Source of the DNA: Berkelbacteria bacterium GW2011_GWE1_39_12
Lineage (GTDB): Bacteria > Patescibacteriota > UBA1384 > UBA12157
NCBI GenBank assembly: GCA_001029735.1
Contig: CP011213.1
Coordinates: 140,087 to 204,086, forward strand
Direction of reading: 5' to 3'
DNA: 64,000 nt
Under the pieces are notes generated by a model that was not told the DNA's origin, did not search any database, and was given only the letters and a program-made list of their open reading frames with translations. Shown here in pieces: positions 2,567-11,595 of the stretch. Within the stretch, counting starts at the first letter, position 1; each line of letters opens with the position of its first letter. Made by a program: the position numbers and the translations under genes.

Positions 2567-2641
2567 TGGTGGACCCGCGCGGATTTGAACCGCGGACCTT
2601 CTCCTTGCAAAGGAGTTGCTCTACCGCTGAGCTACGGGCCC
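2567..2641 (-). tRNA. tRNA-Ala (anticodon UGC), with CCA encoded.
   Basis: The reverse complement reads GGGCCCGTAGCTCAGCGGTAGAGCAACTCCTTTGCAAGGAGAAGGTCCGCGGTTCAAATCCGCGCGGGTCCACCA. It has a 7 bp acceptor stem with the G3:U70 identity pair and the anticodon loop TTTGCAA (anticodon TGC). Confidence 0.85.
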
Positions 2642-2865: not shown

Positions 2866-3296
2866 ACTAAACCTCCTGTTAGAATTAATGTGGTTAATAG
2901 GCCCAAATACCAGTGATCCGGTGAAATATTATAATGAAACCATTCGTGCGTAGAATGCAATTGGGTAAAAAATGGAACTCCCTTTTTCCAGAAATTAAGG
3001 TTATCTAATACATCCACCAAAATTGCGCTAAAACCACCAAACATCATCAGCTTGAACTTTGGCTCCTTATGAAACACTTTATAATAGACAAGGGCTAAAA
3101 TAATGGCCTCACCCAAAACGATCGGATATACCCAAATAGGCTGATAATTTAATGGACGCGTAAAAGTGCCGACATCTAAATGAGGAATTGCATCAAGTAA
3201 AAAATGAGAAGCAACTCCGATAAAAAAGATTGCCCAAGGATTTTTTAGATTCTTAGCAACCACTGTTCCAGTTAAGAGATGTGGTGTTATTGTCAT
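2844..3296 (-). CDS. Polytopic membrane protein, 150 aa, with His-containing motifs; possibly a membrane-bound metal-dependent hydrolase.
   Basis: The protein has four to five predicted transmembrane helices. It carries a conserved-looking HFLLDAIPHLD segment and a HSTHEWFH stretch. Confidence 0.45.
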   Translation of the reverse strand: MTITPHLLTGTVVAKNLKNPWAIFFIGVASHFLLDAIPHLDVGTFTRPLNYQPIWVYPIVLGEAIILALVYYKVFHKEPKFKLMMFGGFSAILVDVLDNLNFWKKGVPFFTQLHSTHEWFHYNISPDHWYLGLLTTLILTGGLVWYLSKS

Positions 3297-3326
3297 AATA
3301 ACATTATAGCAATTAATTAGACGTTA

Positions 3327-3355
3327 TTGAAAACACGGAGGAAATATGTTAAGAT
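3327..3355 (+). promoter_or_regulatory. Sigma70-type promoter for the tRNA-Ile locus: TTGAAA-17 nt-TAAGAT.
   Basis: The -35 box TTGAAA is at 3327..3332 and the -10 box TAAGAT at 3350..3355, with a 17 nt spacer. The same TAAGAT -10 box is used by the putative 16S promoter. Confidence 0.4.
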
Positions 3356-3375
3356 TTAGGAAGCAAAAAATTTTT

Positions 3376-3429
3376 GGGCGATTAGCTCAGTTGGTTAGAG
3401 TTAGTGCCAACTTACCGTTGGCGTCACTG
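3376..3429 (+). other. Partial tRNA-Ile-like copy: acceptor and D-arm 5' half, a 21 nt insertion, then the 5' strand of the anticodon stem.
   Basis: GGGCGATTAGCTCAGTTGGTTAGAG is identical to nucleotides 1-25 of the complete tRNA-Ile at 3467. It is followed by TTAGTGCCAACTTACCGTTGG, which forms a small hairpin, and then CGTCACTGA, which matches the anticodon stem and the first loop bases. Confidence 0.6.
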
Positions 3430-3466
3430 AAAATTTACAACACTTTATTAATTCTCTGGTGGGCGC
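3430..3466 (+). repeat. Left arm of an imperfect inverted repeat enclosing the complete tRNA-Ile.
   Basis: AAAATTTACAACACTTTATTAATTCTCTGGTGGGCGC is the reverse complement, with few mismatches, of the tRNA 3' end plus the downstream spacer (CGCCCACCAGAGAGCTAATAAGAATTGTAAATTTT). The shared core is AAAATTTACAA and 19 of 23 adjacent positions match. Confidence 0.6.
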
Positions 3467-3543
3467 GGGCGATTAGCTCAGTTGGTTAGAGCACGTCACT
3501 GATAATGACGGGGTCGGTGGTTCGAGTCCACCATCGCCCACCA
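3467..3543 (+). tRNA. tRNA-Ile (anticodon GAU), with CCA encoded.
   Basis: The 77 nt cloverleaf has acceptor GGGCGAT/ATCGCCC, D-arm GCTC-AGTTGGTTA-GAGC, anticodon stem CGTCA/TGACG, loop CTGATAA (anticodon GAT) and T-arm GGTGG-TTCGAGT-CCACC, followed by ACCA. Confidence 0.9.
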
Positions 3544-3577
3544 GAGAGCTAATAAGAATTGTAAATTTTGCAACTTT
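3535..3577 (+). repeat. Right arm of the inverted repeat (tRNA 3' terminus plus trailer).
   Basis: This arm is complementary to 3430..3466. Together the arms could form a ~40 bp stem that sequesters the tRNA 3' end in the primary transcript. Confidence 0.55.
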
Positions 3578-3616
3578 ATGACGGGGTCGGTGGTTCGAGT
3601 CCACCATCGCCCACCA
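3578..3616 (+). other. Partial tRNA-Ile copy: 3' half from the anticodon stem through CCA.
   Basis: ATGACGGGGTCGGTGGTTCGAGTCCACCATCGCCCACCA is identical to the 3' half of the complete gene. An intrinsic terminator follows immediately. Confidence 0.6.
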
Positions 3617-3617
3617 A

Positions 3618-3646
3618 GAAAACAGCTTTTAGCTGTTTTTTGTTTT
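3618..3646 (+). terminator. Rho-independent terminator ending the tRNA-Ile transcription unit.
   Basis: The hairpin AACAGCT-TTT-AGCTGTT is followed by TTTTTGTTTT. Confidence 0.6.
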
Positions 3647-3671
3647 GAAAAAATAATTTATATTAGAAGTA

Positions 3672-4148
3672 ATGAAAAAAGTTTATTCGATTTTTTATTT
3701 TTTTCTTATCTTGGCGGCGATTATTTTGATCGCAATATATTTTAGAACTCGAGCGGTTGATCGGAATATCCAAACTGTTTCTATTATGGGTAAAGAGTTT
3801 AAAATTGAATTAGCTAAAAGTTCCTCCGAACATGAAAAAGGACTAATGGACAGAACGCATTTAGATGGAGATGCCGGCATGCTTTTTGTCTTTAAAAAAA
3901 CAGAAATTCAGACTTTTTGGATGAAAAACACTTTGATTCCGTTGGACATTATCTGGATTGATGATGGCAAAATTGTAGACATAAAAACTTTGCAACCCGC
4001 CGGGCAGAGCCCTCTGGGCGGCGCCCCATCAGATAATATTCCTCAATATAAGTCCAAAGCCAAGGCCAATTTCGTACTAGAAATAAACGCGGGACTAGCC
4101 GAAAAATATGGTTTTAAAGTCGGCGACGAAGTTAAGTTTAATTACTAG
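3672..4148 (+). CDS. DUF192 (COG1430) family protein, secreted or membrane-anchored.
   Basis: An N-terminal transmembrane segment or signal peptide is present. The conserved DUF192 core GMLFVF...IPLDIIWIDDGKIVDI is present. Confidence 0.75.
   Translation: MKKVYSIFYFFLILAAIILIAIYFRTRAVDRNIQTVSIMGKEFKIELAKSSSEHEKGLMDRTHLDGDAGMLFVFKKTEIQTFWMKNTLIPLDIIWIDDGKIVDIKTLQPAGQSPLGGAPSDNIPQYKSKAKANFVLEINAGLAEKYGFKVGDEVKFNY

Positions 4149-10138: not shown

Positions 10139-11595
<1,457 letters not shown>

Follow-up and report, generated by a model that had tools for sequence, protein, structure and literature searches.

A tRNA-Ile gene nested between partial tRNA-Ile copies in a Berkelbacteria genome and in related loci of Patescibacteria

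In the genome of Berkelbacteria bacterium GW2011_GWE1_39_12, a transfer RNA gene, tRNA-Ile(GAU), lies between two pieces of a second copy of the same tRNA. The locus raises the question of which copy is the gene, what the flanking pieces are and how such an arrangement arises. We analyzed it within a stretch of 64,000 nucleotides (nt) of contig CP011213.1 (positions 140,087 to 204,086, forward strand), hereafter the window, to which all coordinates refer. An earlier note, made from the letters alone, had described one promoter-to-terminator unit at 3327-3646 that contains a 5' tRNA half, a complete tRNA and a 3' tRNA half. Repeat searches, tRNA detection by ARAGORN and Rfam, and folding agree with this description. 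We give a probability of about 0.5 to the following reading: the unit holds one functional inner tRNA in a helix-clamped module, which lies within the remains of an older tRNA-Ile gene, and these remains have been partly homogenized by gene conversion.

Anatomy of the unit and the predicted helix around the inner tRNA

The features of the unit are as follows (bp, base pairs; MFE, minimum free energy).

3327..3355, + strand: promoter of the sigma-70 type (TTGAAA, 17-nt spacer, TAAGAT, TG upstream of the -10), from a consensus scan
3376..3400, + strand: outer 5' pseudo-half, tRNA-Ile nt 1-25 (acceptor 5' strand and D arm), 25/25 to the inner copy
3401..3421, + strand: hairpin insertion in the 5' piece, GCCAAC (3406-3411) with GTTGGC (3417-3422), loop TTACC, from sequence and fold
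3422..3434, + strand: end of the 5' piece, CGTCACTGAaAAT, anticodon-stem 5' strand and loop remnant, 12/13 to 3494-3506
3425..3466, + strand: leader arm of the clamp helix, from inverted repeats, 36 predicted pairs and covariation in five loci
3467..3543, + strand: inner tRNA-Ile(GAU), complete, CCA encoded, from ARAGORN and Rfam RF00005
3535..3580, + strand: trailer arm of the clamp helix, the final 9 nt of the tRNA plus the trailer, from repeats, fold and covariation
3578..3616, + strand: outer 3' pseudo-half, anticodon-stem 3' strand, variable loop, T arm, acceptor 3' strand and ACCA, 39/39 to the inner copy
3618..3646, + strand: intrinsic-terminator-like hairpin AAAACAGCTTTTAGCTGTTTT followed by a T run, 11-bp stem in MFE and centroid folds

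ARAGORN and Rfam each reported only one tRNA across the unit, the tRNA-Ile with anticodon GAT (GAU) at 3467-3543. This inner copy is a canonical bacterial tRNA, with a defined anticodon and a cloverleaf above the Rfam gathering score (72.6 bits for RF00005 vs 29), and we take it to be the sole working tRNA gene of the unit. The outer copy, in place, was called by neither program and does not form a contiguous cloverleaf. The repeat search confirmed the two perfect direct repeats that the earlier note had described, 3376-3400 with 3467-3491 over nt 1-25, and 3578-3616 with 3505-3543, which ends in CCA just before the terminator. A shorter repeat links 3422-3434 to 3494-3506. The hairpin insertion in the 5' piece is likewise present; its given length of 21 nt is one reading of the letters, and C25U and A26U with 19 nt inserted at 26/27 is an equally good one. 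The repeat sequences of the unit have no further copy in the window (chance expectation 0), and the exact 39-mer had 0 matches in species-representative genomes. The Rfam searches gave tRNA and 16S, and no other RNA family. A terminator scan did not flag 3618-3646, because the stem has fewer than three G-C pairs.

An assembly artefact was ruled out. Three independent assemblies (GCA_003509005.1, ERZ27254731 and ERZ28564079) agree over all 375 nt of the intergenic region, and several other nested loci were seen in separate samples (L095/L168, L101/L178, L097/L136 and L163/L149/L119). Logan contigs, built with short k-mers, break within the intergenic region, as expected given 39-nt repeats.

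The flanks of the inner tRNA are complementary to each other. An inverted repeat centered on position 3500, the anticodon, pairs 3445-3465 with 3535-3555 (21 nt, 90%) and 3430-3445 with 3554-3569 (16 nt, 88%), and the leader arm holds CTCTGGTGGGCG, the complement of the tRNA 3' end CGCCCACCAGAG. The earlier note had given this repeat as 3430..3466 with 3535..3577; the repeat is there, but it ends at about 3569, and it is the folding that extends the pairing to 3580. The fold of 3362-3646 had a free energy of -109.3 kcal/mol (z = -6.4), which none of 200 shuffles equaled. The predicted stem encloses the tRNA as the note had proposed, although with 36 bp and small internal loops (3425-3465 with 3535-3580) rather than some 40 bp. 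This fold leaves the acceptor stem of the inner tRNA unformed and is 7.6 kcal/mol better than the best fold in which the cloverleaf is enforced. Further, the outer acceptor strands pair with each other (3376-3380 with 3608-3612) in both the MFE and the centroid fold.

Covariation of the helix was scored over 24 pairs in an ungapped alignment of the window with four other loci, L181, L109, L133 and L174. In all five, the leader contains CTGGTGGG, which pairs with the tRNA's own ...CCCACCAG end and the trailer. Pairing was kept in 89% of cells, and 10 of the 24 pairs had changed on both sides. The covariation score of 0.36 was reached by none of 500 shuffles, and slid registers gave at most 0.14. 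Between the window and L181, tRNA pair 5/69 changes from G:C to A:U and leader position -2 from G to A, so the leader pairing tracks the change in the acceptor stem; between the window and L111, a C insertion in the leader is matched by a G insertion in the trailer. Strong complementarity of leader and trailer (z below -3) was found in 17 of 82 Patescibacteria-type loci, mostly nested ones, vs 0 of 72 controls. Two features of an RNase III-type helix are thus present: a flank helix of at least 20 bp, and base pairs maintained through compensatory changes.

A leader complementary to the tRNA 3' end was also seen outside Patescibacteria, in L049, a contig end of a metagenome-assembled genome of Deinococcaceae that has the same junction CCTGGTGGGCGC|GGGCGATTAGCTC and whose trailer is lost at the contig end.

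In our preferred reading, the leader of the clamped module would pair with the tRNA's own ACCA end, part of the acceptor 3' strand and the trailer. An older tRNA-Ile gene would hold the module in the region of its anticodon loop, and the two remnants of this gene would still stand behind the original promoter. Transcription from 3327-3355 to the terminator would give a precursor of ~290 nt. The 36-bp helix would keep both ends of the inner tRNA double-stranded, so that mispairing with the identical outer pieces is avoided. Opening the helix would take a nuclease specific for double strands, of the RNase III type, and RNase P and 3' trimming would then complete the tRNA. The outer pieces would never be rejoined; they would be relics, kept partly alike by gene conversion and interrupted by discrete hairpin insertions. 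The data show the anatomy of the unit and its conservation, the covariation of the helix, the modularity and the inversion; the RNAs that accumulate, the nuclease responsible and a lack of function in the outer pieces are inferred.

Nested loci in syntenic relatives and across Patescibacteria

Homologues of the DUF192 protein encoded beside the unit were used as anchors and yielded L085, L086, L087 and L181; L111 was added from the metagenome scan described below. The five loci share the gene order ORF~150 (an open reading frame, ORF), tRNA-Ile, DUF192. The homologues P0016, P0012 and P0007 lie outside the comparison, being non-syntenic or without available DNA. Named relatives of the DUF192 neighbor belong to Berkelbacteria and other Patescibacteria; the nearest homologue is just 59% identical, and identity is 52-59% between the window and the relatives with homologous nested units. 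The promoter is kept in all five relatives: TTGAA and TGTTAAGAT do not vary among the window, L181, L111 and L085, and L087 and L086 have them too. The units compare as follows.

L181: 5' piece with a 66-nt D-loop insertion; module of the window's type, 172 nt, 91% identical; 3' piece of the L111 type
L111: 5' piece, nt 1-25, with a small hairpin at 26/27; complete tRNA in a 14-bp leader/trailer helix; 3' piece with a T-loop hairpin
L085: 5' piece decayed or replaced; inner module as in L111; 3' piece as in L111
L087: 5' piece present; inner module present; 3' piece absent
L086: no 5' piece; plain tRNA of a different allele; no 3' piece

The earlier note had proposed comparison with orthologous loci and had counted plain tRNA-Ile genes in relatives as evidence against its reading. 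L181, L111, L085 and L087 carry partial copies and the helix, and of the five only L086 is plain, so the comparison did not refute the arrangement. Since nested units occur in the syntenic relatives, the nested state predates the split of these lineages. Further, the same promoter directly precedes the tRNA in L086, which places the outer 5' piece of the window at the position of the ancestral gene. The tRNA-Ile of L087 (692-768) has two mismatches in its acceptor stem (GGGCGAT against CGCGCCC) and is followed by a different gene; either the tRNA gene is a recombinant or the contig is chimeric.

The unit points away from DUF192 in all five relatives and toward it in the window, and in blastn the flanks align in the same direction and the unit in reverse. 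Thus, ~305 nt (roughly 3320-3624, from the promoter to CCA) were inverted in the lineage of the window; no flanking inverted repeats were seen at this segment. The terminator at 3618-3646 follows the unit in the window and in none of the five relatives, and was gained in the window's lineage.

The inner tRNA of L181 has GGGCAAT/ATTGCCC in the acceptor stem and GGTGG/CCACC in the T stem, whereas the outer halves differ from it, with GGGCGAT/ATCGCCC and GATGG/CCATC. A module of the window's type thus lies between halves of the L111 type, which means that module and outer halves are separable, and within the window's own clade the module appears to be exchangeable.

How far the nested layout extends was examined with a metagenome scan, in which a 33-mer from the inner tRNA served as a flank-neutral anchor and gave 91 stretches. 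Together with L085 and L087 these made 86 non-identical tRNA-Ile regions, all sharing the anticodon arm. By a profile of the inner tRNAs, 16 regions have a partial 5' copy upstream, 18 have a partial 3' copy downstream and nine have both; by inspection, the nested set also takes in L094, L108, L109, L132, L136 and L095/L131/L168. Exact 14-mer copies of a gene's own sequence within 300 nt lay upstream of 11 of 73 genes and downstream of 20 of 73, two of the 20 being cross-matches to a neighboring tRNA-Val. Among tRNA-Ile genes of other phyla, 0 of 51 had such a copy; a 25-mer had given 78 control loci, each single copy. The same layout was found around tRNA-Ala in two Saccharibacteria genomes (L020 and L030) and in L097. 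Many nested loci lie directly 3' of 16S, in the 16S-23S spacer. Divergence in 16S is 9-13% among loci that share one junction class and 19% between the window and L174. The nested layout recurs in about a third of the sampled tRNA-Ile loci of Patescibacteria. These sequences indicate that it is a recurrent, inherited feature of tRNAs in the ribosomal RNA (rRNA) operons of Patescibacteria and not a private scar.

The module could have come to lie where it does by insertion or exchange, or by partial duplications around an intact copy. In the latter case, a partial tandem duplication with its breakpoint inside the gene would confine 5' pieces to the upstream side and 3' pieces to the downstream side. 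Signatures of tandem duplication were found as duplicates of the leader in L160 (z = 7) and L174 (z = 5) and of the trailer in L108 (z = 29), L090 (z = 18) and L136 (z = 4.5), and neither kind was found in the window or L111. Insertion or exchange and tandem duplication each fit different loci. A simple triple tandem array was rejected for the window, where leader and trailer are inverted rather than direct repeats and have no further copy beyond the outer pieces. The earlier note had offered as an alternative an RNase III-type stem built from a degenerated triple tandem array; of this, a processing stem round one real gene flanked by degenerate copies comes closest to the evidence.

A bolder account of the origin, compatible with the function proposed above, is a mobile, self-compensating tRNA cassette that enters tRNA genes of Patescibacteria rRNA operons, splits them and supplies the replacement. 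It would spread by homologous exchange via the conserved tRNA halves, and free-standing GIY-YIG endonucleases may drive the process. We regard this as possible but doubtful. The outer acceptor strands match each other and are unlike the inner tRNA in L181, L095/L168, L101/L178 and L106, but inner and outer alleles are identical in many loci. One clade has two module types between homologous outer halves, and the plain loci L086 and L182 hold a different tRNA-Ile allele at the syntenic site. Leaders of the window type and the L174 type are still similar (L181 vs L174, z = 5.6) at 81% 16S identity, and in L116 two 5' pieces stand in succession, with the same 48-nt motif after each. The junctions cluster in the anticodon loop, the center of the palindrome; nevertheless they vary (34/35, 35/36, overlaps of 28-34, D arm, variable loop), and there are no target-site duplications. 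The duplication signatures listed above also speak against a cassette, as does the lack of a second copy in the window. GIY-YIG ORFs adjoin the tRNA in L090 and L104, although endonuclease genes are rare near nested loci. In three viral scans the tRNA or junction was found on 0 viral contigs, and a phage carrier was rejected on these scans. A MITE-like element (miniature inverted-repeat transposable element) is not supported either, with no direct repeat flanking the inverted repeat and no other copy in the window.

The stand-alone GIY-YIG ORFs of L090 and L104 (Pfam E = 2e-12 and 1e-10) end at the start of tRNA-Ile, and another lies near the syntenic locus of P0005. All three may be free-standing homing endonucleases.

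That an exchangeable, helix-clamped module has repeatedly entered, or been duplicated in, the tRNA-Ile and tRNA-Ala genes of rRNA operons, or that the tRNA-in-tRNA precursor is a functional processing device, we put forward only tentatively.

The outer pieces

The earlier note had considered an intron-like or permuted arrangement. In a true split or intron-containing tRNA, the insert with the inner tRNA and the small hairpin would both be excised and the outer halves ligated (...CACUGA joined to UUAUGACG..., skipping 3403-3421), which would give two tRNA-Ile per locus. In the window, a tRNA-Ile call for the outer copy was obtained only after exact removal of 3403-3421 and the 143-nt insert. 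With both excisions made, ARAGORN called the outer halves tRNA-Ile(GAU) in the window, L111, L106 and L101. The junctions are in loops, at sites also used by group I introns of Patescibacteria tRNAs (35/36; PMC13011429), and the multiple hairpin inserts in outer pieces of other loci resemble multi-intron archaeal tRNAs.

Nevertheless, this arrangement is very improbable. The joined loop in the window would be CUGAUUA, with U37, or the anticodon would be GAA. In L092, L160, L174, L109 and L132, the commonest related class, A35 is missing at the junction and ARAGORN found no valid anticodon. In L111, L094 and L101 the two outer pieces cover some of the same tRNA positions, and pieces are missing or decayed in the close relatives L085, L087 and L086. 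Rfam Intron_gpI had no match in 3250-3750 at E up to 10, and the intervening sequences of 13 nested loci gave none either (E up to 1); no ribozyme match was found, and the insert is just 143 nt long, 77 of them tRNA. The 3-4-3 geometry of a bulge-helix-bulge (BHB) motif was not seen at the junctions of the window, L111, L106 and L092, by inspection only, no dedicated BHB scanner being used. No splicing endonuclease or RNA ligase was found among the scanned ORFs of these 64 kb, in a genome of roughly 0.8 Mb or more. Further, bacteria are not known to have a splicing endonuclease. The intron-like reading is accordingly not supported.

In its intron mode, ARAGORN pairs inner and outer parts arbitrarily. 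At a relaxed threshold it reads the joined 3376-3434 and 3577-3616 as a 96-nt 'tRNA-Val(UAC)'. The inserted hairpin, with its 7-nt loop CUUACCG, mimics an anticodon arm; since nothing of the kind is seen in L111, this is probably a coincidence.

The window's outer 5' piece is homologous to those of L111, L087 and L181, and at its insertion site, after GAGTT, L111 and L087 have a different small hairpin. The outer 3' pieces of the window and L111 each carry the T-stem variant of their own inner tRNA (GGTGG/CCACC and GATGG/CCATC, respectively). L181 keeps the older state, with outer halves unlike the inner tRNA and the hairpin kept, which indicates that the 3' piece of the window was recently overwritten. 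The outer pieces are best read as partly homogenized by gene conversion from the inner copy. They also appear to be dispensable or defective, as the 5' piece is decayed in L085, the 3' piece is absent from L087 and both are absent from L086.

Several observations weigh against this reading. Among L181, L085 and L111, identity of the outer 3' piece, T-loop hairpin included, is 49-51/51 (96-100%), vs 44/50 (88%) for the promoters and 77-87% for the coding flanks, and upkeep of the T-loop hairpin is beyond gene conversion from the inner copy; the outer pieces may therefore be under selection. Distant loci repeatedly have hairpin insertions at matching sites of the tRNA, with stems that covary. 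Direct repeats of 25-39 nt, 70-90 nt apart, should be deleted in a streamlined genome, yet the arrangement has lasted through deep divergence. As to the helix, the sense strand gave the better fold in 14 of 22 loci (p = 0.44), and the same strand comparison gave 11 G-U vs 5 A-C pairs, which does not set an RNA helix apart from a DNA palindrome. Further, it is by reasoning that we infer how the precursor is processed and what becomes of the outer pieces.

An alternative that we hold to be unlikely overall is that selection keeps the outer pieces because they function as RNA. The acceptor stem and T arm would form a tRNA-like scaffold that closes the precursor and acts as a signal for processing or protection; an entry site for RNase P or RNase Z, an exonuclease cap or, in the relatives, the 5' end of the downstream mRNA are the proposed roles. 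Relatives with 52-59% protein identity, and lineages 81-91% identical in 16S, have kept the arrangement, the outer acceptor strands pair in the folds described above, and the insertion hairpins keep their stems by compensatory changes. In L181, L085 and L111 the outer 3' piece, 96-100% identical beside neighboring DNA at 77-88%, stops 8-12 nt before the ATG of the next gene. However, recent exchange between lineages could also explain that identity, and pieces are lost or decayed in L085, L087 and L086. The window's own unit is inverted, and inner sequence has overwritten its 3' piece. Finally, an intrinsic terminator follows the inner tRNA in L108, L030 and L097, so the outer 3' piece may lack transcription there.

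The outer pieces of the wider set carry further recurrent sequences. A ~48-nt motif, CATACAAGATAcgAAAgtGCCCGAAGGGCGACAAAGCGTAATGC, directly follows the outer 5' piece, past G34, in L092 (1022-1069), L174 (2865-2912), L160, L109, L132, L163/L119/L149 and, in two copies, L116; nhmmer found no other sites, Rfam gave no match to it, and the window lacks it. Structured inserts of ~90 nt lie in the T loop of outer 3' pieces of tRNA-Ile (L108, L172 and L093) and tRNA-Ala (L097, L030 and L020). One family, GGGGTCGGGAAAC...GGAAAGTAATGAAAACCGTGGGTT..., is found in L108, L172, L093 and L097, often beside a T arm with an inverted loop; a different insert, TTGCAAGGA...GAAGTTTCGGGC, is common to L030 and L020. 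The inserts of L108 and L172 had no Rfam match. Insertions also occur at a fixed site in the T stem (L092, L094 and L109), in the D loop (L094, L098, L101, L174 and L181; they run CCCC...GGGGCAGG) and in the variable region (L094, L097/L136, L109 and L160; they carry CTTCGCC...GCTACGG). A 20-nt perfect palindrome, CCTGCCTGCCGGCAGGCAGG, is among the recurrent insertions, the stems of which covary. In L111, the 26/27 hairpin of the 5' piece (TTCATGCCTAAAGG) and the T-loop hairpin of the 3' piece (TCTTTAGGCATGAA) are reverse complements at 13 of 14 positions; this reflects either a mini-palindrome inserted twice or long-range pairing.

Genomic surroundings, known systems and significance

All scanned neighbors of the unit are housekeeping genes by Pfam: a ClpB-like protein, ClpP, trigger factor, glycolysis, UvrABC, and ribosomal proteins and translation factors. 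Among the window ORFs scanned with Pfam, most of at least 90 amino acids, there was no integrase, transposase, homing endonuclease or other mobile-element gene, and no island surrounds the unit. This bears on the attachment-site scar that the earlier note had listed, in which an integrase-borne element once entered the anticodon loop of tRNA-Ile and was later deleted. The perfect 39-nt repeat agrees with it, as direct-orientation 3' fragments are the classic signature (PMC9897764), and the starts of 3' pieces in anticodon and T loops match the sublocations of tyrosine integrases (Williams 2002, cited in PMC9897764). However, merely 34 nt separate the gene from the fragment, a 5' piece is present too, the spacers form a covarying helix and the state is inherited by several species. 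With no integrase or island in addition, we consider a scar highly improbable and the suggestion unsupported.

A general habit of the tRNAs of this genome was rejected as well, the tRNA-Ala at 2567-2641 (-) being plain, without a flanking inverted repeat or partial copies. The 16S gene lies at 10141-11595 (-), and there is no 23S or 5S gene within the 64 kb. The tRNA-Ile and tRNA-Ala are 6.6 to 7.6 kb past the 3' end of 16S, with protein genes between, including that of the ClpB-like ATPase. With no linked 23S or 5S gene and distant tRNAs, the rRNA operon is unlinked.

In the literature searched we found no description of a nested tRNA-in-tRNA arrangement. The same literature describes only one kind of tRNA interruption in Patescibacteria, group I introns at 35/36 of tRNA-Asn and tRNA-Asp (PMC13011429), and attributes prokaryotic tRNA fragments to kilobase-scale integrated elements or clustered regularly interspaced short palindromic repeats (CRISPR; PMC9897764).

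Four known systems resemble the unit in part. Leader/trailer helices of rRNA operons and rRNA intervening sequences excised by RNase III share with it a long flank helix round a stable RNA and compensatory change, and many of the related loci lie in the 16S-23S spacer. In contrast, the helix described here encloses a tRNA, uses the tRNA's own ACCA end and acceptor 3' strand, and has half of a second tRNA copy on either side; RNase III cleavage is putative. Fragments left by integrative elements (PMC9897764, PMC4383910) likewise include a perfect 3' repeat that starts in the anticodon loop, downstream of an intact gene; here, however, there is no island or integrase, the spacer is 34 nt, a 5' fragment stands upstream, the spacers pair and the state is inherited across species.

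Disrupted tRNAs of archaea, whether with BHB introns at many positions, split or permuted (PMC4090602, PMC3978253), are also interrupted in loops, and complementary flanks join their halves; some related loci have several hairpin inserts, as they do. Here, by inspection, there is no BHB, the insert holds a complete tRNA of the same identity and the outer copy is often defective. Finally, the group I introns of Patescibacteria (PMC13011429) come from the same phylum, interrupt the same anticodon-loop region and are missed by standard annotation. They are reported in tRNA-Asn, tRNA-Asp and tRNA-Thr, whereas the gene here is tRNA-Ile(GAU), no intron core was detected, and the insert is far shorter and contains a nested tRNA.

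Bacterial tRNA genes are assumed to be simple and contiguous, and adjoining fragments are read as scars of integrated elements. Annotation pipelines show a plain tRNA only; the nested layout, and the helix that ties up the tRNA 3' end, escape them. If the helix is a processing clamp, it would suggest that tRNA maturation in these reduced genomes depends on RNase III. If the module is exchangeable or mobile, it would offer a new route for the replacement of an essential single-copy gene, and a self-compensating mobile tRNA cassette would be a previously undescribed kind of element. If the outer pieces are functional, the precursor would represent a new kind of structured precursor.

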